In this document: in pieces, positions 1 through 60,581 of the stretch
How positions within the stretch are numbered: position 1 is the first letter of the stretch
How the letters are laid out: each line of letters opens with the position of its first letter
IMG/VR virus record: IMGVR_UViG_3300027708_002017
Origin: an uncultured virus (IMG/VR IMGVR_UViG_3300027708_002017)
Taxonomy: Duplodnaviria > Heunggongvirae > Uroviricota > Caudoviricetes
DNA: 64,000 nt
Reading direction: 5' to 3' (one strand)
Translations under genes and position numbers: made by a program
The notes under the pieces: generated by a model
What the model was told of the DNA's origin: nothing
Seen by the model: only the letters and a program-made list of their open reading frames with translations
The model's database searches: none

Positions 1-1143
1 TTTAAAAGATATTTTATTATTTTGATCTAGCCACGTATTGTATGTTATTCCTTTTTGGAATAGTTCTTCATCACCTTTAAATTGACTAGCTAAACTGTTT
101 AACTGCCAGCTATTTAAATCTGTGGATCTGTTTAGTATAATATCTTTATAAAAACTTGGCAACACACCGACTGATAAGAACACAGGATCATATACATAAT
201 TCATATGAACATGTAACCCTCTTGCCTGCATAAAATTATGAAATTCATTTACGTAGTATACATTTAGCCAGCTTATAGTTTGACATACACTTGTTTCAAT
301 CCAGGGAAATGATTGAAGTTTATCTAAATTATCAATAACAGTATCCCAGTCGGACCCGGCACGAATGTAATCATTACGTTTGCCTAAGTCATCTATGCTG
401 GCAGTTATTTGTACCTTTTTAAAGCTACTCCATAAATCAATTAACTTGTCTGGCAAGTTAGTCATGTTTATGTTATACCATAGAGTAATTTGTTTGTTTA
501 GACCACGTTTGATTAATTCTTCTAAGTAACGCCAGTGTTTCTCTACTAGTGTAGGCTCACCACCGTTGACATAAATTAGTTCAACATCTTTGCTATGCTC
601 GAACAGGTCATCCCAAAACTCGTCACTTTCGGTCCAGTCACTATTAATCTTTCTATCGTAGTGTGTTACAAATTTTAACTCTTGTTGTAGTTTTTGATAG
701 GGTTGTATCCAGTTTGTACTGCTAGCAGGATTACAGGTTCGGCATTTAAGATTACATAAGTTACCTAGTCGTAGTTCGATAAACTTAAAATTAACGGGTA
801 TAGTGCCATCTTTTTGTGTGATAGCACGAGCCATATCTTCTGTGAACCTTAGTTTGTCGTTTTCTTCTACACGTTTACTTCTAACACCGTTAGCTTCTTC
901 TTGGAAACAACGTTCACACGCCTTAGGTACAATACCGTTGAGCATTTCTAATCTGGTAGCCTTATAATAATCGCTATTCATAATATCACTTATTTTGTGA
1001 TTATTAAGATCAAGATATGTCAAAGGTTGATAATTTTTAGCTCGACTGGCGGCCCCACGATGATCACTTACACAGCATAATGTAGCACCCCCGTCAGGGT
1101 GCGTAGCTAAGTGTATCCAAGGTAAACTGCAATAGGTACTCAT
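1..1143 (-). CDS. Radical SAM enzyme with N-terminal SPASM/Twitch-like domain (3' end beyond window)
   Basis: Not in ORF track. Hand translation from ATG 1143: MSTYCSLPWIHLATHPDGGATLCC...CERC...LGNLCNLKCRTC...NGGEP. Confidence 0.88.
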   Translation of the reverse strand, partial: MSTYCSLPWIHLATHPDGGATLCCVSDHRGAASRAKNYQPLTYLDLNNHKISDIMNSDYYKATRLEMLNGIVPKACERCFQEEANGVRSKRVEENDKLRFTEDMARAITQKDGTIPVNFKFIELRLGNLCNLKCRTCNPASSTNWIQPYQKLQQELKFVTHYDRKINSDWTESDEFWDDLFEHSKDVELIYVNGGEPTLVEKHWRYLEELIKRGLNKQITLWYNINMTNLPDKLIDLWSSFKKVQITASIDDLGKRNDYIRAGSDWDTVIDNLDKLQSFPWIETSVCQTISWLNVYYVNEFHNFMQARGLHVHMNYVYDPVFLSVGVLPSFYKDIILNRSTDLNSWQLNSLASQFKGDEELFQKGITYNTWLDQNNKISFK

Positions 1144-2387
1144 TTAGGTCCTAGTTCCTTAATAAAGATTTCATCCATCCATGGATAAATTCCACGCCAG
1201 TTTTGTTTACGTCTGACATCTAGCTCATCAAGATAGTCTCTAAGTTCTTTCATTTGTTCTTTGTTAACTTCTGAACTTTTAATTTGTACAGCAAACCCTT
1301 CAAGATAATTTACATAAGAGTTATCGAGTCTAGAAGCAGAGTCTACTAACTTATCTGTATATTCTGTTAAGTAGTGGCCAAAGACACTTGGGTCTAAGAA
1401 TGTAGGATGTGCCACCACATTCCAACCTTGTCTAATATGTTTAATTTTATTCCACTCTACAATCTTATCTGTTAGTTTATATGCTGTAGGCAAGGTGATA
1501 GGACTTAATGTAGATTGTACAAACACACTTATTTCTGGAATGCTCAATAAAATATTAAAGTTATCTTCCCAGTTCTTTAAACTCATTCCGTTTCTGGCAT
1601 ACTCTTGTTCTTCGTCCCAGCAATCTATACTACAAACAATTTCAAAGCGACGGATCTTGTTTTGTTTAATCAAGTCAACAATTTTATTCATCTTAACTTC
1701 AAATTGTTGTGTATTATGTTTAAGATTACTAAATACTTTCCAGTTAAGATTTGGGTTGTTATGTGTTTCAAAAAAGTCTAAACATTCTTGAAACTCAGGT
1801 TGGAACATAGGCTCACCGCCTAACACTTGCAAATCATATAAATGATGTGCGTGTTCTTCCATCCATTCCCAAAACTCTCTTTTCCATTGTTCGTATAACG
1901 GTTTAGCACTCCAGTTACCATGCAAATTATATCTTTCACTGATAGGTCCAAACTTTTTAATTTCGTGTTCAATAACACTACTAAACATAGGGCTACAATA
2001 AACACACGATTGGTTGCACAAATTACTAAAATAAATTTCTAAAATTCGAGGTGTAACACGAGTTGCCGTTGGATCCGTTTCTAATTCTGGAGGAACCATA
2101 TCTAAATCGTTAATATAACCTGTACGCTCGCTGACACCACCTGCATCTTCAATTCGCTTACAATAGTTACATTCGTTCTCAGGCCACTCGCCGTTCAACA
2201 TTAATTCTCTATCTCTAATTTTTAATGGGAGATTATGAAAGTCTTTGAAATTTGTTTCATCTAAGTAGCCTCCCATCACCCTGTGGCAACTGCTAGTTGA
2301 TCCTTCGGATAAGAAGATACTACTCCATGCCCATTTATATTGGCATGCGGTTTCCGTTTTAATTGGAAAAACCTTTTGTTTTTTCAT
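1140..2387 (-). CDS. Radical SAM enzyme, N-terminal Twitch-like domain
   Basis: CNQSCVYC (CX3CX2C), LGGEP, N-terminal CxxxW..SCH..CNYC. Confidence 0.9.
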   Translation of the reverse strand: MKKQKVFPIKTETACQYKWAWSSIFLSEGSTSSCHRVMGGYLDETNFKDFHNLPLKIRDRELMLNGEWPENECNYCKRIEDAGGVSERTGYINDLDMVPPELETDPTATRVTPRILEIYFSNLCNQSCVYCSPMFSSVIEHEIKKFGPISERYNLHGNWSAKPLYEQWKREFWEWMEEHAHHLYDLQVLGGEPMFQPEFQECLDFFETHNNPNLNWKVFSNLKHNTQQFEVKMNKIVDLIKQNKIRRFEIVCSIDCWDEEQEYARNGMSLKNWEDNFNILLSIPEISVFVQSTLSPITLPTAYKLTDKIVEWNKIKHIRQGWNVVAHPTFLDPSVFGHYLTEYTDKLVDSASRLDNSYVNYLEGFAVQIKSSEVNKEQMKELRDYLDELDVRRKQNWRGIYPWMDEIFIKELGPK

Positions 2388-3766
2388 AAATTATTCCACC
2401 ACTTAATTAAGTCTTTATTTTGTGAATATATATCTTCTATAGTATACGTGTCTTTACGTATTGTTTCAAGTCGTTTGAGCCAGTTCTTTCCATTCCTAGC
2501 GGCTTTCTTATATTCATTAGGGTATGCTTCTTCGTGTGTCTGGCGAGTTTTCATCGACTCCAATGTGGTAATAAGTGTTTGCTGTTTATTTCCGGCAAGG
2601 GGTTTCATGTAAGATAGTAAGTCATCTATGACTGCATCGAGTATTGGCCTTGGCCATGCCATTGCAGTAAACATAATATCAGCATGAAATGCAAACATAA
2701 TTTTTGTTTCAATACGTACATCTAATTCGCGACTTAGGTCAAACAGTTCTTTAAGACTAAACATACCTGGCCCAGTTATAGTTAAATCTATAATCATCTT
2801 ATCCTTGCCGCCAGGTAGCTCGAGACCTTGTTTAAAGTTTTCTAACCATTCGTTCCATTTAAGCCCTGTACGGATATATTCGCCAATTTGTCCTGCGCCA
2901 TCTATACTAGCACACATCATCCAATCTTTAAACTTAGGCAAGTATTCGTACAAGTTCTTTTTACCAAACTGTACACGACTTAGGTTGCTGTTGTATCGCA
3001 TATAGCATGTTTTAGCAGATCCGTTATTAACCATTTCTTCTAACGCCCACCAATGTATATCATACATTAACGGCTCCCCGCCTACCCAATACATTTCTTC
3101 TACAATGCCACGTTGTATAGCATCTTTAAACTCGGGCTCTACTACAGTGCCTTGGAAATTTTCCATAGCACTTTTAATCTCAGGAATCATAAATGATTGA
3201 TTCTTCGGACTCCATAAACCATTTACTTTCTTTTCTGTTTCCCAACTACTGCTTAACTGTTCACCACACATGCGGCATTTAAAATTGCACAAGTTACTGA
3301 ATCTATAATCAAAGCTAATAGGCTCCATAGTAGTATGACCGGTTTCGTCGGTACTGTCAAATGCCTGCTGTATTTTATCTTTAAACAAGTTACCCGTAAA
3401 CCATTGTCGATATGTGCTAACACTTAGTAAATCTTTATTGCAAACATCACATTGTGGAATTTCTTCTCCACGCATTAACTTAACACGAATGTCGCGCAGG
3501 TACGGGCTATTCCAATGTTCTTTGAGGCTAACTGGATTATAGTCATCTAATGCTGTTTTGCTTTCTGTTACTTTGCCATACTTGCTGTCGTTACTGCTAT
3601 CGATGTATTGCTTTTGGAAACTGTGTTCTTCTCGGCTAGCACAACATAGTCTACGTTCGCTTTGTGGACTGATATAAGTATGGGTCCACGGAGCCATGCA
3701 AAATGTTTTGTTAGGACTGTTTGGGTTTATGCGTCCATGATCCCATATAGGTATGACTTTAGACAT
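2384..3766 (-). CDS. Radical SAM enzyme, N-terminal SPASM/Twitch-like domain
   Basis: CMAPW..LCC..CDVC; CNFKCRMC; VGGEP. Confidence 0.9.
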   Translation of the reverse strand: MSKVIPIWDHGRINPNSPNKTFCMAPWTHTYISPQSERRLCCASREEHSFQKQYIDSSNDSKYGKVTESKTALDDYNPVSLKEHWNSPYLRDIRVKLMRGEEIPQCDVCNKDLLSVSTYRQWFTGNLFKDKIQQAFDSTDETGHTTMEPISFDYRFSNLCNFKCRMCGEQLSSSWETEKKVNGLWSPKNQSFMIPEIKSAMENFQGTVVEPEFKDAIQRGIVEEMYWVGGEPLMYDIHWWALEEMVNNGSAKTCYMRYNSNLSRVQFGKKNLYEYLPKFKDWMMCASIDGAGQIGEYIRTGLKWNEWLENFKQGLELPGGKDKMIIDLTITGPGMFSLKELFDLSRELDVRIETKIMFAFHADIMFTAMAWPRPILDAVIDDLLSYMKPLAGNKQQTLITTLESMKTRQTHEEAYPNEYKKAARNGKNWLKRLETIRKDTYTIEDIYSQNKDLIKWWNNL

Positions 3767-5279
3767 TTTGTCCTAATGAATCGTTTTCGATGTCCCAGCC
3801 ATGTGCTACTTCATCGCTGACATAGCCTGCCTCTGTAGTAGCCGGATCGCCACCTAGTATAACTTCCCCACCAATGAGTTCTATACTATCGATAAAGTCT
3901 ACAAAGTCTTGCGGAAATGTAGTTCTAAAGTTTTTACCACGGCGCTGGTCATACTGCTCGTAGAAACTTCTAAAATCATTATATAGTTTAGGTTGCTCTG
4001 CTGTATTGCGGTGAGGTGTCTTAATGATATCTAAATAATCTATTAGACGATTAATTTGATCTACTTCGCCCATAGTAAGAATAGACTCGGTCCACGAACC
4101 TCTGTTAACTTTTTCACCTTCCGCTAGACGAGCATCTAACCATGTTTGTAGTTTATTCTTATAAAATTGTTTCATGTGATCAGGTAGGATTGCGGCACTT
4201 TGAAAGCTAGGGAAACGCAAAATATTTAAACTCATTGTAGGGCTAGTAGTTTGATGCTTACGTTTAAATGCTAATACATCGTCCATGAACTCTGTAATAC
4301 TAGCAAGACATAAACTGTTAATAGTCATCATCATATGTGCAGACTTTATATTACCCTCAACACATAACCGCTCCATGTTGTTCCACCATGTGGTATATTC
4401 CATGCCGTCACGAATATACTCGCTTTGTGCGCCTATACTTTCATTACTAGTGTAGATTTCCAAATGCGGAATACTGTGGCTCAGTTCAATTAATTTATCT
4501 AATATTTCTTGTTTGGGCACTAGATTACTATTGATGGCGAAACGCATTTTCTTTCCGCGATCGGGATTATTCTTAAACCATTCAAACAGTTTCCAAACAC
4601 TTGGTGCCATTAATGGTTCTCCGCCTGTAATGCGAATTTCTTCCAAACTGTCTGCTAAATCGCTTTCCCACCATTTCCAAAACGCTTGAATGTACGGGTT
4701 GTCGTCTTCATTCTTAGGACTTTCCGCCCATGGAGCAGTATCCATAAAATGTCCACGGCCGTCGCTTACAATATTAATGTATGGTCCGTTCTTTTTAATA
4801 TCACGAACCCAGCTGGTACTAAATGCCGGATTGCAATATGTACAGGCAAAATTGCAAGTGCGTTCAAAGCTAATCTCTAAAGTTTTAAGTGTAACATCAC
4901 TATCCCATGGCATTTCGCTAGATGCTTTAATATCTTCGTCGGAGTAGATATGAGTTTTAAAAACACGGTCACTAACCGCATCTCGACCCATGTCTTCGAC
5001 TTTCCAACAATATTCACATTCGTTAGGACGCTCGCCTTCTAACATCAACTTACGCATTAACTTTTTATGTTTTGTATTATGAATAGCACTAGGGTTAGTT
5101 TCAATTTCTGCAACATCAATTTTATGAGCTGGGGGATGATGGCAACTAGTAGTTTGACCGTGCCCTAACCAAATAGTAGCATTGTACCATTTTGCACCGC
5201 AGTAAGTATCGCTAATTGGATCGATGACCCTTAGTTTAAATTGTCTGTAAGTTTCTTTTTTGCTGTAATCTCTAGCCAT
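3759..5279 (-). CDS. Radical SAM enzyme, N-terminal Twitch-like domain
   Basis: CGAKW..SCHH..CEYC; CNFACTYC; TGGEP. Confidence 0.9.
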   Translation of the reverse strand: MARDYSKKETYRQFKLRVIDPISDTYCGAKWYNATIWLGHGQTTSCHHPPAHKIDVAEIETNPSAIHNTKHKKLMRKLMLEGERPNECEYCWKVEDMGRDAVSDRVFKTHIYSDEDIKASSEMPWDSDVTLKTLEISFERTCNFACTYCNPAFSTSWVRDIKKNGPYINIVSDGRGHFMDTAPWAESPKNEDDNPYIQAFWKWWESDLADSLEEIRITGGEPLMAPSVWKLFEWFKNNPDRGKKMRFAINSNLVPKQEILDKLIELSHSIPHLEIYTSNESIGAQSEYIRDGMEYTTWWNNMERLCVEGNIKSAHMMMTINSLCLASITEFMDDVLAFKRKHQTTSPTMSLNILRFPSFQSAAILPDHMKQFYKNKLQTWLDARLAEGEKVNRGSWTESILTMGEVDQINRLIDYLDIIKTPHRNTAEQPKLYNDFRSFYEQYDQRRGKNFRTTFPQDFVDFIDSIELIGGEVILGGDPATTEAGYVSDEVAHGWDIENDSLGQNV

Positions 5280-6837
5280 TTATTTTCTCGCATTCTGACC
5301 AATATTGGTACATTTCTGGAAACGTCTCCAGAAAGTTTGTTTGTCGCCTACTATCGTATTGTTTGATAAATTGATAAAACTGTCGTCTATTAGTAGTTAG
5401 TTGTTCTTGAGGCATGCCTTCTTTCATCATGGCCAAATTGCGTTTGAGCTTTAATATTTCGTGAGGCTTAAAACCTTCTAGTGTTCGACCATAATCTGCC
5501 GCCTGTTCATTTGCTTCCATAAATGCTACACAATCTTCGACAATTTCAATTAATTCAGGAGTTGCGTTTTTTACATCAAACCAGTTAGGATAGCTTAATA
5601 ATGGTATGTCAAAAAAGATTCTTTGAAAACGTTTTTGCTTGTATTTTTTATGAACTATGCCGTGTGCTTTTTCTTCGTCAGTTGCTTCTGGAGCAATTTC
5701 AAACTCTGTTTGATTGAGCCCGCCAAACTCTTGTCTTAGTTCTAATATAAGCTGTAGATAGCTACGCAAACTAGGTATGCTTAATAAATTAAATGTATTG
5801 ATAAAGCTAACAGTAGTGTAACGTGTTGAGTTTAAAAACTTGCGTATGTTATCTAGCATTAGATTATAGTTTAATCCTGTCCGCATGTACTCTGCTTGTT
5901 CGCCAGTGCCATCGAAACTAACATACAACCAGAAATGTTTAAAGCCCTTGTCCACATACCAATGATTGCCGCTATGCTCGTTAAAGTTATCTTTGTCTTC
6001 ATACGTGCGTATAACTTCAATAGCTTGTACTTTGCTGATAAAACGATCAAATAATTTAGGATCTGGAGGACACATGTTGCTAGTAATACTTAATTCCAGT
6101 TGCCCGTGAGGATTTTCATTCACATAATCTAACACCTTAAATGTGTTTTTATCCATTAGTGGTTCGCCACCTGTCATACGAAATACACGTAGGTTTCGAT
6201 ATATTTCTGGCCACCATTTCCAAAATGCTGTTACATACGGATTGTCTTTATTGGCAGATTCAATGGGCATGTAACCTTTTTGTTTAAGGCTAGTGATGTC
6301 GTTATGCCCGCCATGATCAAATTTATACGGCCCGAATTTTTCTATTTCTTCTTCCCACGTAGTACTGATATGCGGACTACAATACATACATTTGAAATTG
6401 CAAGCACGATTAAAATTAACTTCTACATAACGTGGAGTGATGTTAAAGTCAAATGGTTTACTCATTACTTCATCGTAGTGTGGCTCAGCCCACCATTCAC
6501 TAGACTTGTAATGCCTATCGCTTAGATTCTCTCCTTCGGCATCTTCGACACGCCAGCAATAACTGCAACCTTCGGGCCTTTTGCCTTCGAGCATCTGTTG
6601 TCGTTCCTGCTTCTTAAAGTTAGTGTTGTGTAAAGCACTGGCATTAATTGCAAGTTCCTCTAATGGAATAGGATGTGCAGGTGGATGATAGCAACTTTGT
6701 GTAGTTCCGTTAGTTAAATTAATGCTAACTTGTAACCATTTAGCAAGACACATACTAGGACTTACTGTATTCAGTTTATCCCGCATGTCCTCCGCACGTT
6801 GAAAGTATTCTGTGAATCCGTAATTTTTTCTTACCAT
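5272..6837 (-). CDS. Radical SAM enzyme, N-terminal Twitch-like domain
   Basis: CLAKW..SCYH..CSYC; CNFKCMYC; TGGEP. Start taken at the ATG overlapping the upstream stop (TAATG). Confidence 0.9.
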   Translation of the reverse strand: MVRKNYGFTEYFQRAEDMRDKLNTVSPSMCLAKWLQVSINLTNGTTQSCYHPPAHPIPLEELAINASALHNTNFKKQERQQMLEGKRPEGCSYCWRVEDAEGENLSDRHYKSSEWWAEPHYDEVMSKPFDFNITPRYVEVNFNRACNFKCMYCSPHISTTWEEEIEKFGPYKFDHGGHNDITSLKQKGYMPIESANKDNPYVTAFWKWWPEIYRNLRVFRMTGGEPLMDKNTFKVLDYVNENPHGQLELSITSNMCPPDPKLFDRFISKVQAIEVIRTYEDKDNFNEHSGNHWYVDKGFKHFWLYVSFDGTGEQAEYMRTGLNYNLMLDNIRKFLNSTRYTTVSFINTFNLLSIPSLRSYLQLILELRQEFGGLNQTEFEIAPEATDEEKAHGIVHKKYKQKRFQRIFFDIPLLSYPNWFDVKNATPELIEIVEDCVAFMEANEQAADYGRTLEGFKPHEILKLKRNLAMMKEGMPQEQLTTNRRQFYQFIKQYDSRRQTNFLETFPEMYQYWSECEKING

Positions 6838-7667
6838 TAGGTCCACAAACTTTGTCTAATTTTGATGAGTCGAATCATCATGGCTTCTTCTTCCGCTTCG
6901 TAAGCCTTTTCAATTTTTTGCAGTAACTTGTGAGCCTTGTCGCTAGCTTTTTTAAGCTCAGGATCTTTATCAGCACTAAAACTTAGTCGGCCACCGTTGG
7001 CAACACGACTTGCTTCACATGCCGCAGTCCAACCACTTGCTTCATATGCATCTGGACGATTACGATATGTAACAGTCCACCAAGTGTATAGCTCAATAAT
7101 TTCTTTTGCGGCATTGGCTTGATAAGTTGGTTCAGCTTCAGACTTTTTATCATCATCCAAGAACTCTTCGTTGGTAAGAGTGCTTGCCCATTTTAGATAT
7201 TCTAATCCAGCTTCTGGACAGCGCCATGTGCGTAAGCGCAACCAGCCACTACGATACCAAGGAACATTGAATTTCTTTTGTTCTTCATCGTTCCACATAC
7301 AGTAATGCCATGCTTGTTCTACTTCAACGAAATCCACAAGTTCTTTAAAAAGACAAGGGAGAAACCTATTACCAACGTCACACCAACTGCCAGGTCGGAT
7401 ATCACGAGGGTCGGCAGTAAGAGCATGACTCTTAGAAATGAAACGATTGTTGATGTAATATCTGACATCATTTAATTTATCCATAGGCCAGTTTATAAAA
7501 TTTTGTATTGCATCCAATGCATCTTCCGCCACCCAATAGCGAAAGTTGTGCTTCATCTTGGCAGTGGTACGCCATTCGTCCCATTCTTCACTTGTGGCGG
7601 CACTTAACTTTTTAGTGCCACGCACCCAATCTGCAAATTTACTGCATGACCAATAATTACTTCTCAT
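6837..7667 (-). CDS. Hypothetical Trp-rich phage protein
   Basis: 276-aa ORF coupled to both neighbours; no recognised motif. Confidence 0.75.
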   Translation of the reverse strand: MRSNYWSCSKFADWVRGTKKLSAATSEEWDEWRTTAKMKHNFRYWVAEDALDAIQNFINWPMDKLNDVRYYINNRFISKSHALTADPRDIRPGSWCDVGNRFLPCLFKELVDFVEVEQAWHYCMWNDEEQKKFNVPWYRSGWLRLRTWRCPEAGLEYLKWASTLTNEEFLDDDKKSEAEPTYQANAAKEIIELYTWWTVTYRNRPDAYEASGWTAACEASRVANGGRLSFSADKDPELKKASDKAHKLLQKIEKAYEAEEEAMMIRLIKIRQSLWT

Positions 7668-17605: not shown

Positions 17606-17634
17606 ATTTTACATGAAAACGTATCTCTTGTCAA
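17606..17634 (-). promoter_or_regulatory. sigma70-type promoter
   Basis: TTGACA-N17-TAAAAT. Confidence 0.75.
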
Positions 17635-18271
17635 CTGTTTCCAAGTGATGATATATCTTTTTGGATAATTTTTTGGTGATACTGTTCAAGCCAAAATGGC
17701 TGATATATGCTCGTAGTTGGGGACTGGAAAATTGACTACCTGTACGCATTTTACTCAAAACGCTGATCCTACCCAATCTTCGTTTGGCACGTTCTACATC
17801 CATTGTGCGTAGCAGTTCAATAGCAATACTAAATGCATAGGCATCCAATTCATCATCATCTGCAAGGTATGCTTCATATGGTGTGTCAGCATGCTCTCCA
17901 TACTGGTTATGGTCTCTGCGCATACTTTGATATTGGTGACGGAATTCGTGTACAGTTGCATCAAATATTTCTGTGAGAAAACTAGTTATTTGGTGCGACC
18001 CAAATTCTTCGTCGCCGTGCAGGTTATGATAAACAATAACTTCTATAGCTGTATCTAAATTAAAATCATTTTCGCTATCGTAGTATGCCATAACATACCA
18101 CTTGTCCGCATCTAAGTCCCGATCTTTTTTGGTTTTGATTGCAATATCAAATTCATGTAGTTTGAATGTATTGCGAGTACGGCCTATTAGTTTTTTAAAA
18201 GTCGTTGGATCCGGGCTCTGTTCTCGAACTTGTTTACAAACATTATATACACGTTCGAGAATGATGTTCAT
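17609..18271 (-). CDS. Zincin-like (HExxH) protein, similar in layout to 9038-9763
   Basis: VHEFRHQYQ...DELDAYA. Confidence 0.65.
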   Translation of the reverse strand: MNIILERVYNVCKQVREQSPDPTTFKKLIGRTRNTFKLHEFDIAIKTKKDRDLDADKWYVMAYYDSENDFNLDTAIEVIVYHNLHGDEEFGSHQITSFLTEIFDATVHEFRHQYQSMRRDHNQYGEHADTPYEAYLADDDELDAYAFSIAIELLRTMDVERAKRRLGRISVLSKMRTGSQFSSPQLRAYISHFGLNSITKKLSKKIYHHLETVDKRYVFM

Positions 18272-18273
18272 AG

Positions 18274-18495
18274 TTACAACCTAAATGTTATTCTACCCTT
18301 GCTTAAATCATAAGGGCTAACTTCTAATTTGACATTATCACCTAAAATGATTCTAATCTTATGTTGCTTCAATCTACCACCCATATAGCATAATAGTGGG
18401 TTGGGCATATTTTCTACTTTTACTCTAAACATACTGCCGGGTAGTACTTCTTCAACTGCACCCACCAATTCTATTACGTCTTCTTTATTGCTCAT
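18274..18495 (-). CDS. infA: Translation initiation factor IF-1
   Basis: KEDVIEL.G.VEEVLP..MFRV..EN...IRIILGD.V.LEVSPYDLSKGRITFR. Confidence 0.95.
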   Translation of the reverse strand: MSNKEDVIELVGAVEEVLPGSMFRVKVENMPNPLLCYMGGRLKQHKIRIILGDNVKLEVSPYDLSKGRITFRL

Positions 18496-18674: not shown

Positions 18675-19208
18675 TTAGTCATCTTCCCAAGGAACTGGTC
18701 TCCAACCTAAACGATTCAAGTCCAATTCAATCTCTTCAGTCACAACACCTTCCGGAACATAACCTGTGCCATCGGCACCAGTTAGGCCATTGCCTAATTC
18801 GGCATTACCGATACCGCTACAGTACCAGTCAATATAGTCACCCTTTTCTTGCATGTCAGCTATTATACCACCGGCACTGCGCCAACTGCAACTCCAAGTT
18901 TCGCCTTTCATCTCTTGCCAAAACTCTCTGCTTTGCCAAGTCATATTACACATGGCCGCATACAAGTTTTGGGCGTAGGTGTCACTGGCTTTAACTTTGT
19001 CGCAAATCCACTTGGTGCTACGTAGATCGTACTCCATGTTGTTCTTTTGCCAAGCAGGATCTAAAATTTCTTCTGCTTCCTGTTCCCGCCAACTTTCATA
19101 CATATTAACATAGTCGGGATTTGGTTCTTTGCCTTCTTCCTCGCAGTGTTTGATATACCCTTCTTTTTGAAAGGTATGGCGTTCAGGGCTTGAATTTACT
19201 TTGGTCAT
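18675..19208 (-). CDS. Hypothetical protein
   Basis: 177 aa; YAQNLYAAMCN, WSCSWRSAGG motifs. Confidence 0.7.
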   Translation of the reverse strand: MTKVNSSPERHTFQKEGYIKHCEEEGKEPNPDYVNMYESWREQEAEEILDPAWQKNNMEYDLRSTKWICDKVKASDTYAQNLYAAMCNMTWQSREFWQEMKGETWSCSWRSAGGIIADMQEKGDYIDWYCSGIGNAELGNGLTGADGTGYVPEGVVTEEIELDLNRLGWRPVPWEDD

Positions 19209-19525
19209 TTGTGAAACTTTCCTTGAAAGCAGTGGCGCATTTCATGTCCTACAGTCCAGTAGTCAGTATTCTTTGCTGTAATTATAATGCAGGTATCTTT
19301 CTTATCCCAAAAGCTACAGGCATCCATGTTTTTATTTCCTGTTTGGAAAGGTCCAAATCCACGCCGGGCATTTTCGGCATCGCATGCCGCCTTTACATTG
19401 TCCACAGTACGCCAAGTAATAGTTGTGGAATTGGTTACATTATTTTCGTTTGAGAATTTATCATAGGGAGTTTCAACTGCCCATGCATTGGATACAAACA
19501 ATAATAGTACAAGTGCCTTTTTCAT
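19205..19525 (-). CDS. Secreted protein with HExxH motif
   Basis: True start MKKALVLLLFVSNAWA (signal peptide); GHEMRHCFQG. Confidence 0.7.
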   Translation of the reverse strand: MKKALVLLLFVSNAWAVETPYDKFSNENNVTNSTTITWRTVDNVKAACDAENARRGFGPFQTGNKNMDACSFWDKKDTCIIITAKNTDYWTVGHEMRHCFQGKFHK

Positions 19526-19541: not shown

Positions 19542-19658
19542 TGGTGTAGACGGGAAGATTCGAACTTCCAAAGCCACCCTAAGGGCAAGGCCCATTCCCT
19601 CCGTTCAGCTGGGGGTCAGCTTACTAGGAGGAGGTATACCGGTTCCACTCACGTCTAC
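19542..19658 (-). ncRNA. Atypical tRNA-like RNA (117 nt) with expanded anticodon arm
   Basis: Acceptor GTAGACG/CGTCTAC plus A-CCA, T arm GGAAG-TTCGAAT-CTTCC, D-loop GG, long variable arm, 24-nt anticodon loop. Confidence 0.75.
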
Positions 19659-19664
19659 CCTGTT

Positions 19665-19693
19665 AGTATACTATCATTTGTAAATACTGTCAA
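19665..19693 (-). promoter_or_regulatory. sigma70-type promoter for the tRNA-like RNA
   Basis: TTGACA-N17-TATACT, 6 nt upstream of the RNA 5' end. Confidence 0.8.
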
Positions 19694-20652
19694 TGCAATT
19701 TTCTACCATACCTTTTGAAAAGATCACATATTTTGGACAACAAACTATGTTGGATCGCCCGTTATTTAACGTAAGTTGGATATTGGGCAGATTTTGCAAT
19801 TATAAATGTAGTTACTGTTGGCCCTATGCAAGAACTGACATTCCAGATCACCAACCGCTTGAAGTATATAAATCTACTGTAGACGAGATTAAGCGTCAAG
19901 CACGAGCTAATGGGTTTAACCAGTTCCATTGGTCGTTCAGCGGCGGTGAACCAACTGCTTACAAATATTTATTAGACTTAACCAAACACTTGGATGACGG
20001 TGTAGCAACACCGTACCAAACAGTGCATATGACCACTAATCTAAGTCCCAGTTTGACATGGTGGCGCAACTGGCATAATGCAACCTGTTTGCTACAGCGT
20101 AGAAGCATTACTGCCAGTTATCACGCTGAGCATGCCAAAGAGTCCGAGTTCGGTGACAAGTGTTTGCAGTTGATGGAAGATTTAGTACATGTGACTATTA
20201 ATCAAGTTATGGTTCCTGATAAGTTTTTTGAAACCTTAGAGAGATGTGAACGTTTTCGTAAACGTGGCATCAATGTAACTCTTAAGCCTCAGAGTAATCC
20301 CAGCGCGACCAATATCGTAGACGGCTACACTCAGGAAATGATTGATATAATGAAGGACGATTTTGAACAACAAGAGGATAATCAGATCAGACTAACTGAC
20401 GGCAATCAAGATTATTACATAGATCAAGCAGAGCGTTTCAACGCATTAGACTTTAATAGTTTTACCCATTGGACTTGTAATAGCGGCTATCAAAGTGTTA
20501 TAATAAGAGGTAATGAAGTCAAGCGAGCCTATAGTTGCAAAGAAGAAAACTTAGGAACAATAGAAAAATTTACTTTGTTTTCCGCACCCAAAGTATGTGT
20601 AACTGATAGGTGTGTTAGTAGTGCAGACAGCAAGATACCAAAACGGAAATAA
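19693..20652 (+). CDS. Radical SAM enzyme with C-terminal Twitch-like Cys domain
   Basis: CNYKCSYC, SGGEP, W.CNSG...SC...C...C. Confidence 0.9.
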   Translation: MQFSTIPFEKITYFGQQTMLDRPLFNVSWILGRFCNYKCSYCWPYARTDIPDHQPLEVYKSTVDEIKRQARANGFNQFHWSFSGGEPTAYKYLLDLTKHLDDGVATPYQTVHMTTNLSPSLTWWRNWHNATCLLQRRSITASYHAEHAKESEFGDKCLQLMEDLVHVTINQVMVPDKFFETLERCERFRKRGINVTLKPQSNPSATNIVDGYTQEMIDIMKDDFEQQEDNQIRLTDGNQDYYIDQAERFNALDFNSFTHWTCNSGYQSVIIRGNEVKRAYSCKEENLGTIEKFTLFSAPKVCVTDRCVSSADSKIPKRK

Positions 20653-52118: not shown

Positions 52119-52196
52119 TGGAGCAACGGGAGGGATTTGAACCCCCGGTTTTAGGGATTTGCAATCCCTTGCATTGGACCTCTCTGCCACCGTTGC
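52119..52196 (-). tRNA. tRNA-Cys(GCA)
   Basis: Cloverleaf, AGGGA-TTGCAAA-TCCCT, U73, CCA. Confidence 0.93.
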
Positions 52197-52282: not shown

Positions 52283-52558
52283 TTATTTGTATTGTGCTCT
52301 GCGATCAATTGCACGATCTCGCGGAGTATCAAATTTGATTTTCTTGATATAGTCTACGCCACACTCGCCTGATTGGAAATCAAGCAATGCACTAACATTA
52401 CTGTGCAAGTGTTCAAATTTTTGACTATCTTTGTTCTGTCGACGAATTTCTCGACTACGTGCGGCCGCCATAATGACAAGATTAAATCTATTGCCACCGG
52501 ACATTTCTACAATTTTGTCATTATCTAATTGGCCTACGCGGCTAGCTGTTTTAATCAT
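52283..52558 (-). CDS. rpoZ: RNA polymerase omega subunit-like protein
   Basis: GNRFNLVIMAAARSREI...ALLDF resembles the RpoZ core. Confidence 0.75.
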   Translation of the reverse strand: MIKTASRVGQLDNDKIVEMSGGNRFNLVIMAAARSREIRRQNKDSQKFEHLHSNVSALLDFQSGECGVDYIKKIKFDTPRDRAIDRRAQYK

Positions 52559-60489: not shown

Positions 60490-60581
60490 TGGTACCAGCG
60501 GAGGGGATCGAACCCTCTCAAGAACGCTAATCTGGCGCTAAAAGGTGTATAAGACCTCTCTGACTTCCAAGTCTCGCTGGC
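60490..60581 (-). tRNA. Atypical tRNA with TAT anticodon (Ile-UAU?)
   Basis: GCCAGCG/CGCTGGT-A-CCA; mini D arm ACT-TGGA-AGT; AGAGGT-CTTATAC-ACCTTT; long variable arm. Confidence 0.75.

Follow-up and report, generated by a model that had tools for sequence, protein, structure and literature searches.

A phage-borne family of tRNA-Leu-framed RNAs lacking an anticodon loop, and its possible use as a tRNA decoy

The DNA analyzed here, a stretch of 64,000 nucleotides from an uncultured virus (IMG/VR record IMGVR_UViG_3300027708_002017) that we refer to as the window, belongs to a large T4-like phage and carries genes for ClpP, DNA ligase and translation initiation factor IF-1, together with many radical SAM and 2OG-Fe(II) genes. 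At positions 19542-19658 (minus strand) lies a gene for a 117-nt RNA, framed as a tRNA-Leu and devoid of an anticodon, which scores 99.4 bits with our family model R1, of which the window sequence is itself part. From its 5' end, and all on the minus strand, the RNA is composed of the 5' strand of the acceptor stem, G1-G7 (19652-19658, pairing with 19546-19552); a Leu-type D arm (19632-19651) with A14, A15, G18G19 and A20a, its 3-bp stem bearing one bulged pyrimidine; a 34-nt closed hairpin at the place of the anticodon arm (19598-19631; 5 bp, an internal loop, 5 bp and a 5-nt loop); a 4-nt linker and a 23-nt variable arm (19571-19597), the latter made of 5 bp, a 2-nt bulge, 4 bp and a triloop with a central U; U48 and the T arm (19553-19570), with G49-C65 and the weak EF-Tu pair A51-U63; and the 3' strand of the acceptor stem, followed by the discriminator A73 and an encoded CCA (19542-19552). 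A sigma-70-type promoter, TTGACA-17-TATACT, is located upstream (19665-19693, minus strand), with 11 of 12 consensus matches and the end of its -10 box 6 nt before G1 (19658). These observations bear out the preliminary description of this DNA, which had pointed out a 117-nt RNA with a 7-bp acceptor stem, A73-CCA, a canonical T arm and a long variable arm, a TTGACA-N17-TATACT promoter ending 6 nt upstream, and some 32 kb between the RNA and the tRNA array; the array begins at 52119, 32.5 kb away. It had also described a 5-bp stem that encloses 24 nt, among them an inner 5-bp hairpin, and this is indeed present; the 5-nt/4-nt gap between the helices is, however, no plain loop but fits the AGUA/GAA sarcin-ricin motif, a bulged-G internal loop (19626-19622/19606-19603, minus strand; motif as defined in PMC1865062).

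The same description had proposed ARAGORN and Rfam as checks, and neither Rfam nor ARAGORN in its default mode detects the RNA. Rfam 15, including the YrlA/Y-RNA models, gave no match to it, the only two hits, at 13.5-13.7 bits, being due to chance (the gathering score is 40). The ARAGORN tmRNA search of the window found none, and with introns allowed the program reads the RNA as Thr(agt) with a 21-nt intron. Folding of the single sequence is weakly distinctive (z-score of -1.76, with 10 of 200 shuffles equally good). Ordinary tRNAs are represented by 29 ARAGORN calls at 52-63 kb, including a tRNA-Tyr(GTA) and three tRNA-Leu genes. As a separate observation, positions 60490-60581 (minus strand) hold an abnormal tRNA-Ile(TAT) of 92 nt, called by ARAGORN and missed by Rfam, with a 4-bp D stem and 4-nt loop, a 7-bp anticodon stem and a long variable arm; a long-armed TAT tRNA of different sequence also occurs in the related phage record G002 (L257 13786-13877), and UAU is reported among the predominant anticodons of allo-tRNAs (PMC5389517). 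Adjoining the array, 52283-52558 (minus strand) shows a weak match to the RNA polymerase omega subunit (TIGR00690, E 8.5e-4, below cut-off).

Downstream of the RNA, the first gene (19205-19525, minus strand) starts 16 nt past the CCA, with an A/U-rich flank and no terminator-like site between the two, and encodes a 106-aa protein with a hydrophobic N-terminus, for which no Pfam, PHROG or NCBIfam hit was found. An HExxH-like motif is present in this protein and in the product of 17609-18271 (minus strand), which suggests that both may be zinc peptidases. Relatives of the 106-aa gene are located between tRNA genes in two other loci (L037 and L048). The most frequent neighbour of the RNA is a conserved 177-aa protein (18675-19208, minus strand), found in 59 of 70 loci; its relatives make up at least 7,944 clusters, and it has conserved C-terminal W/C/Y motifs. 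Its fold is confidently predicted (pLDDT of 89.7), and comparison with BFVD and with 48,161 PDB chains returned no clear match (best Z 3.5), the Atlas no hit, and cultured phages a single weak one. The same downstream gene run includes IF-1 (18274-18495, minus strand; PF01176 and TIGR00008, above cut-off), which is present in 49 of the 70 loci. On the opposite side, a divergent radical SAM gene (19693-20652, plus strand; PF04055) stands at the edge of a biosynthetic island. Dense radical SAM-like islands occupy positions 1-6846 and 19693-47690 of the window, with at least ten such genes having Pfam hits in 19693-40524, and on mixed strands they also hold Asp/Asn hydroxylase-like, desaturase, Trp-halogenase-like, AdoMet decarboxylase and aminotransferase genes.

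The RNA has many relatives, with at least 206 distinct sequences in at least 343 loci, hence at least 207 when the window is included. First searches with a 3'-end pattern returned 9 viral loci, and those with the downstream 106-aa gene 39 loci, 26 of which carry the RNA; a pattern combining the D and T arms matched at least 120 stretches in IMG/VR, and a looser one at least 119 in metagenomes. The positions of A73 and CCA are outside these D-arm/T-arm patterns, and A73 is found in 206/206 members and ACCA in 197/206. Applied to 185,579 prokaryote genomes, the D-arm/T-arm pattern, an exact one that would miss distant forms, gave no match; blastn against 50,697 cultured-phage records returned T-arm pieces only, none covering 80%, and thus no family member, while R1 reached at most 48 bits on four cultured jumbo relatives and T5. 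When loci were chosen through the 177-aa neighbour with the RNA disregarded (the best 80 of 298), 78 of the 80 had the RNA within 6 kb, and in one of the other two the same record has the RNA inside a tRNA array, with its own promoter. From the neighbour-fetched set, 57 HMM hits that failed the regular expression (T-loop or D-loop variants and cut ends) were left out, many being regained by a looser expression. Related RNA-bearing records span 266-400 kb, and five of them (G001-G005) were used for genome-scale comparisons in place of the window's own genome; G001 and G002, from related phages, have one RNA copy each, and the G002 capsid protein shares 67-73% identity with its counterparts in Sinorhizobium phage Phosso, Vibrio phage 2.275.O, Pseudomonas phage PA5oct and Serratia phage BF.

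Among 85 diverse members, 94.2% of cells are paired and two-sided changes occur in 16 of 25 pairs (in the acceptor stem, 6 of 7 pairs and 99.3% of cells). The covariation score was reached by 0 of 500 shuffles, a test inflated by the relatedness of members, and slid controls were 33-55% paired. As the covariation among homologues stands far above both controls, the fold is not due to chance. The preliminary description had suggested precisely a homologue search with covariation analysis, and this shows stems that are compensated rather than randomly decaying. A decaying tRNA pseudogene could be imagined from the failure of Rfam and default ARAGORN and from the weak folding z-score, but the compensatory changes in the acceptor, variable and T stems, the retained promoter and the RNA's presence in 78 of 80 loci chosen blind to it leave this reading a practically negligible chance. 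Judging from these comparisons, the RNA is a real, conserved, phage-specific and maintained family of structured RNAs. A literature search, covering sources other than subscription papers and older T5 work, returned no description of it. In PMC10690425, which lists 10,006 candidate RNAs, those seen to overlap tRNA calls (DNAVirus_1423, 215 and 2961) have 56-87 nt and 5-130 members; the ones checked do not obviously match the family, which may be among the 10,006.

What sets these RNAs apart from tRNAs is the arm in the anticodon position. Its length ranges from 12 to 35 nt (SD 7.2 nt), no member out of 207 having 17 nt, and it is capped by UUCG (44/207), CUUG (13/207) and GNRA tetraloops, among others. 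A 5-bp anticodon stem with a 7-nt loop and U33 was sought and not found in the family of 207. With a looser test (at least 4 of 5 stem pairs plus U33) 26 of 206 members pass formally. In 22 of these a perfect 6-bp hairpin with a UNNG tetraloop has been forced into register, at the cost of a C.A mismatch and with 'anticodons' that vary, and the remaining 4 are chance registers. In fact, ARAGORN assigns members to eight isotypes (Gly, Arg, Pro, Gln, Thr, Ser, Ala and Asn) or to intron tRNAs. The variable region behaves differently: linker plus variable arm have 27 nt in 117 of 207 members (SD 1.5 nt), the arm's pairs covary, and its triloop is TTA, ATT, ATA, CTA or GTA in 190 of 207, with a middle base that is nearly always U. 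Sixty of the 207 members have the AGUA/GAA motif, whose flanking sequence agrees with the E. coli 23S loop at 2654 (9 of 9 nt on the 5' side). What looks like an insert in the window extends the stem and contains an AGUA/GAA internal loop, which members can dispense with. Two further ideas were considered and rejected, namely that a full mimic of the sarcin-ricin loop is the core role (147 of 207 members are without the motif, and the ribosomal one-pair-plus-GAGA cap is absent among the arm types listed), and that a Leu(UAG) anticodon arm has been displaced into the variable-arm position (the covariation favours a tight triloop).

The preliminary description had weighed a tRNA-Tyr with a short protein-spliced intron against a non-decoding tRNA mimic, and had noted that removing 17 nt could yield a GTA anticodon, albeit without U33. 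The latter point holds, with a purine at position 37, and ARAGORN proposes an intron when allowed to; moreover, tRNA introns have been reported from Lak phages (10.1101/356790), and 26 members pass the formal stem and U33 test. Several findings speak against splicing into tRNA-Tyr(GTA) or any other decoder: U33 results from none of the 8 ways to excise 17 nt from the 24-nt loop, the 26 formal passes dissolve into out-of-register UNNG hairpins and chance registers, a 12-nt arm (the shortest) leaves no room for an anticodon loop, in short relatives the arm is a tetraloop hairpin, and the body has a Leu-like frame; in addition, Tyr identity requires U35, and an ordinary tRNA-Tyr(GTA) is already in the window. 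The intron reading thus keeps a very small probability. Since the arm drifts and is capped by tetraloops, U33 is missing, and normal tRNA-Tyr and tRNA-Leu genes are in the window, the RNA can be neither a decoder nor an intron tRNA. The other option of the preliminary description, a non-decoding mimic, is supported by the variable, tetraloop-capped arm with no usable anticodon loop, and that the RNA is both non-decoding and maintained can be held with high confidence, the family having retained the 7-bp acceptor stem, discriminator, CCA and T arm of decoding tRNAs.

The spacing of the promoter is also a family trait. In 140 of 159 members exactly 6 nt separate the -10 box from G1, a spacing seen in 0 of 12 ordinary tRNA genes, these 12 being the ones with a promoter-like site within 16 nt (eleven at 7-15 nt, one at 3) among 185 distinct ordinary tRNA genes of the same loci. 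With a 6-nt spacing, the usual sigma-70 geometry places +1 at G1. From the fixed spacing and this geometry, transcription is predicted to start at G1, so that the RNA would be leaderless, would need no RNase P and would keep its 5' triphosphate. Among public RNA runs, 8 contain 5-7% of the query words, and the four examined are contigs of distant relatives, some of which span promoter DNA.

In most of 70 loci the RNA heads a run encoding the 106-aa and 177-aa proteins, an AbrB/MazE-like protein, IF-1, and proteins of 220 and 228 aa, the 220-aa one having returned only unnamed clusters and metallopeptidase-like leads at 0.90 or below; a second RNA subfamily heads a different gene run. The RNA might therefore be a cis-acting operon head, that is, a tRNA-shaped cap at the 5' end, or a processing signal, through which the IF-1-containing mRNA gains stability or is cut, any charging being incidental. 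The short, terminator-less and A/U-rich passage into the first gene and the leading position in most loci are consistent with this possibility. However, the RNA heads two unrelated operons and, in record G010, is located within a tRNA array, while relatives without the RNA have a promoter directly before the same genes; moreover, the fixed A73, CCA, A15:U48 and A51-U63 would not all be needed in such a role. We consider the cis-acting reading unlikely. The RNA and its promoter move together, between two different operons and also into an array of tRNA genes, which rather suggests that the RNA acts in trans.

In E. coli, LeuRS identity is described as A73, A15-U48, G18G19 and A20a, and charging survives loss of the anticodon arm (PMC9976931). 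The family carries A73, A14, A15:U48, G18G19, A20a and the T-loop partners. As some of these positions are fixed by the search patterns, they were counted in RNA-blind sets, i.e., loci fetched by neighbouring proteins and parsed without fixing identity positions, although detection was still by the family HMM: A14, A15, A20a, U48, A73 and A51-U63 are present in 52/52 and 43/43 members, and G18G19 in 51/52 and 42/43. Tyr and Ser identity were not found: TyrRS requires U35, and Ser identity relies on the variable arm with G2-C71 and G73 (PMC9976931), and the family has no anticodon, never G at position 2, and A73 in all 206 members. When R1 was run on the ordinary tRNAs of the window, T4 and T5, the four best were all Leu (39-41 bits), all others scoring at most 32; the window's Leu(UAG) is absent among the 34 matches listed. 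Given the retained identity set and the Leu frame in R1, the RNA can probably be charged with leucine.

The T stem points to weak EF-Tu binding. In the affinity model of PMC3239215, A51-U63 is the weakest 51-63 pair, and it is present in 206/206 members versus 1 of 20 phage tRNA-Leu. Predicted binding is -9.4 kcal/mol for 187 members and -9.6 for 19, versus a mean of -10.2 for the 20 phage tRNA-Leu; in the same model, bacterial Leu classes range from -9.9 to -10.4 kcal/mol. Charged members would thus be expected to bind EF-Tu about 0.8 kcal/mol, or roughly four-fold, more weakly than a normal tRNA-Leu, a mild shift (1-2 SD) to a value that Tyr, Trp, Arg and Ile bodies also have. The pair recurs in unrelated Leu-frame mimics, namely T5 RNA1, Serratia BF 289744-289855 and Vibrio 2.275.O 210989-211123, and three further non-Leu phage mimics have A51-U63 or U51-A63, several A51-U63 mimics having first been flagged by R1, a model that favours that pair; T4 rnaC, with G51-C63, is an exception.

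A chargeable RNA with weak EF-Tu binding could serve as a dedicated leucine donor for a non-ribosomal transferase, the main rival to the reading we prefer, and one that retains a small but real probability. Its most plausible form would involve the host L/F-transferase feeding a phage-encoded ClpS-ClpAP N-degron route. L/F-transferase competes poorly with EF-Tu, and this competition is stated to be an open problem for the enzyme (PMC4105747; PMC4810233), and the optimal substrate of the E. coli enzyme is given as G3:C70 with C72, A4:U69 and C68 (PMC4105747). In the family, the 3-70 pair is G3-C70 in 97, A3-U70 in 96 and G3.U70 in 13 of 206 members, the poor C3-G70 never occurring, whereas 4-69 is G4-C69 in 188 and the preferred A4-U69 in just 18; by sequence, then, the acceptor-stem preferences would be only half satisfied. 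G002 encodes ClpS (L259 175-474), ClpA/B (L253 1512-3785) and ClpP (L255 11620-12207), besides DnaK, DnaJ and GroES-like chaperones, and ClpP is also in the window. ClpS is present in 4 of 5 family-bearing records, in favour of this route, but also in 4 of 4 cultured jumbo relatives, including PA5oct, whose examined region showed no mimic, and it is absent from T5, which has RNA1; going by these genomes, ClpS does not track the tRNA mimic. Further against a donor role, neither L/F-transferase nor CDPS was found in the 5 related records, although the positive controls were detected, and no aaRS or Fem-type protein among the 282 of 382 G002 ORFs scanned.

The preliminary description had instead suggested an amino-acid carrier for the adjacent biosynthetic island. 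As a matter of position this stands, the radical SAM neighbour being adjacent to the RNA in 53 of 70 loci; when 73 loci of the radical SAM gene were inspected (7 of 80 were left out, their upstream DNA being missing), the RNA was directly adjacent in 58, 0.9-1.7 kb away in 5 and absent within the examined DNA (up to 3 kb) in 10. As a carrier the case is weak: the neighbour is optional, and no tRNA-dependent transferase was found. In fact, G002 has the RNA while its best relative of the radical SAM gene is only 27% identical, and in G001 a 44% relative lies far from the RNA. Supplying leucine to an enzyme of the island would be less likely than supplying it to the host L/F-transferase.

The variable arm, fixed in length and with U at its tip, is not accounted for by the needs of LeuRS, as the E. 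coli enzyme does not require a variable arm (PMC9976931). This feature points to a protein contact beyond LeuRS, and it would suit a regulator with little or no charging that attaches to a host sensor of tRNA (RelA, LeuRS or a variable-arm partner) and damps the starvation response. The 5' triphosphate that a leaderless start would leave is in line with such a regulator, and activation of RelA requires binding at the A site (PMC4810233), which is impossible for a codon-blind RNA. On the other hand, it is only in a charged RNA that a tuned EF-Tu site matters, the complete set of Leu identity positions is an argument for charging, and no partner was found, the 177-aa neighbour having no clear fold match. 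On balance, a regulator of this kind appears quite improbable.

We tentatively favour the view that the RNA is a phage gene derived from tRNA-Leu that has retained the features read by LeuRS and lost decoding, and its use as a decoy for effectors of the tRNA body, while also held tentatively, is the likeliest main one. Under this proposal, transcription from its own promoter would begin at G1 and give the mature 5' end with no RNase P step, whereas the 3' end would be trimmed at CCA out of the downstream operon transcript. Host LeuRS, needing no anticodon, would charge the RNA with leucine, and weak EF-Tu binding would let it accumulate as a free tRNA body outside translation. It would then bait host effectors that read the tRNA body (acceptor/CCA end, T arm and elbow) rather than the anticodon, so that the real tRNA pool would be protected during infection, while the closed, tetraloop-capped arm would spare the RNA from anticodon nucleases. 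Effectors of the required kind have been described: Cas12a3 binds the EF-Tu-bound region of tRNA and cuts the CCA tails of free tRNA (PMC12851939), and Cash cuts tRNA T loops (PMC13462974). As both ignore the anticodon, they would be suitable targets for a free tRNA-body bait. Nucleases that act on the anticodon arm, e.g., RorSlfn5 (PMC13056530; reviewed in PMC13434031), are of another kind, and the suggestion in the preliminary description of a decoy for anticodon nucleases fits poorly with an RNA that has no anticodon loop, while a decoy aimed at tRNA-body-binding factors is compatible with it. The decoy reading has its limits: it cannot be paired with any particular defence system of a host, a decoy need not be leucine-chargeable, and other phage mimics observed in this work have non-Leu frames.

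Among known RNAs, the closest appears to be T5 RNA1, which with RNA2 (NC_005859.1 30501-30644 and 32959-33083) is annotated as 'tRNA-like stable RNA with unknown functions'. By sequence, the family would be of the same type, i.e., a phage RNA with a tRNA body, a Leu-type D loop and a closed long hairpin as anticodon arm; a long variable arm, together with a T arm, is also shared, and both RNA1 and RNA2 have A51-U63. Unlike the family, with its A73-CCA, own promoter and fixed-length variable arm, RNA1 has neither encoded CCA nor A73 and lies within a tRNA operon, and the two are not homologous beyond the generic tRNA frame (R1 gives 17 bits, partial, below ordinary tRNA-Leu). T4 species 1 and 2 (rnaC and rnaD) are likewise small stable RNAs of a tRNA region whose role is unexplained (PMC3014915), rnaC ending in a T arm after long helices, but they have no Leu-type D loop or encoded CCA, show G51-C63 and are not stand-alone. 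Class II tRNA-Leu (RF00005) shares the D-loop layout, A15:U48, G18G19, A20a and A73 as well as a long variable arm, and includes the ordinary tRNAs nearest to R1; the family differs in having no 7-nt anticodon loop, an extra D-stem base, a Y2-R71 pair that is often U-A, A51-U63 and a score below the Rfam gathering threshold. Non-proteinogenic tRNA-Gly of staphylococci, an aminoacyl donor with weak EF-Tu binding, keeps its anticodon arm and has known Fem acceptors. Like the family, this tRNA has a weak T stem for its class (-9.5 versus -10.8; PMC3239215), the shift in EF-Tu affinity being smaller in the family. The tRNA-like domain of tmRNA and the Y RNA YrlA are also tRNA mimics without an anticodon arm, but in the family G3.U70 is found in just 13 of 206 members, with no tag reading frame and no Rfam match; G002, a 345-kb phage record, has a separate two-piece (permuted) tmRNA gene (L258 3032-3475, ARAGORN), and no Ro60/TROVE hit was found among its scanned proteins. 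The RNA is neither an allo-tRNA with an 8/4 or 9/3 acceptor branch (PMC5389517) nor an intron tRNA of the Lak type (10.1101/356790).

Other tRNA-shaped RNAs without a normal anticodon arm were observed in cultured phages. Serratia phage BF has three, at 289744-289855, 294918-295036 and 296567-296691, two unannotated and one annotated as a pseudo-tRNA, all with a weak 51-63 pair, and Vibrio phage 2.275.O has a 135-nt Leu-frame mimic with no ARAGORN call (210989-211123) and a 119-nt multi-armed mimic (171224-171342).

As to the wider meaning of these results, it is conceivable, if still rather doubtful, that large phages have repeatedly remodelled tRNA-Leu into charged, codon-blind and EF-Tu-weak decoys against immunity that targets the tRNA body, or into private leucine donors. 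Within that scenario, the present family would add an RNase-P-independent start, a variable arm used as a protein handle and a sarcin-ricin-like module (60 of 207 members). Its more than 200 natural variants show selection keeping the LeuRS set, the CCA, the weak EF-Tu pair, the G1 start and the length of the variable arm, while the anticodon arm drifts. For phage tRNA-like RNAs without an assigned function (T5 RNA1 and RNA2, T4 rnaC and rnaD), the puzzle could be reduced to two or three simple assays, for which T5 RNA1 and the unannotated RNAs of Serratia BF and Vibrio 2.275.O are cultured stand-ins and possible bench models. Moreover, given the false isotype and intron labels assigned by ARAGORN, counts of tRNAs and of tRNA introns in phages may include such mimics. 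If the remodelling scenario is true, these RNAs would represent an undescribed RNA-based form of counter-defence, one that would also account for the orphans T5 RNA1 and RNA2.
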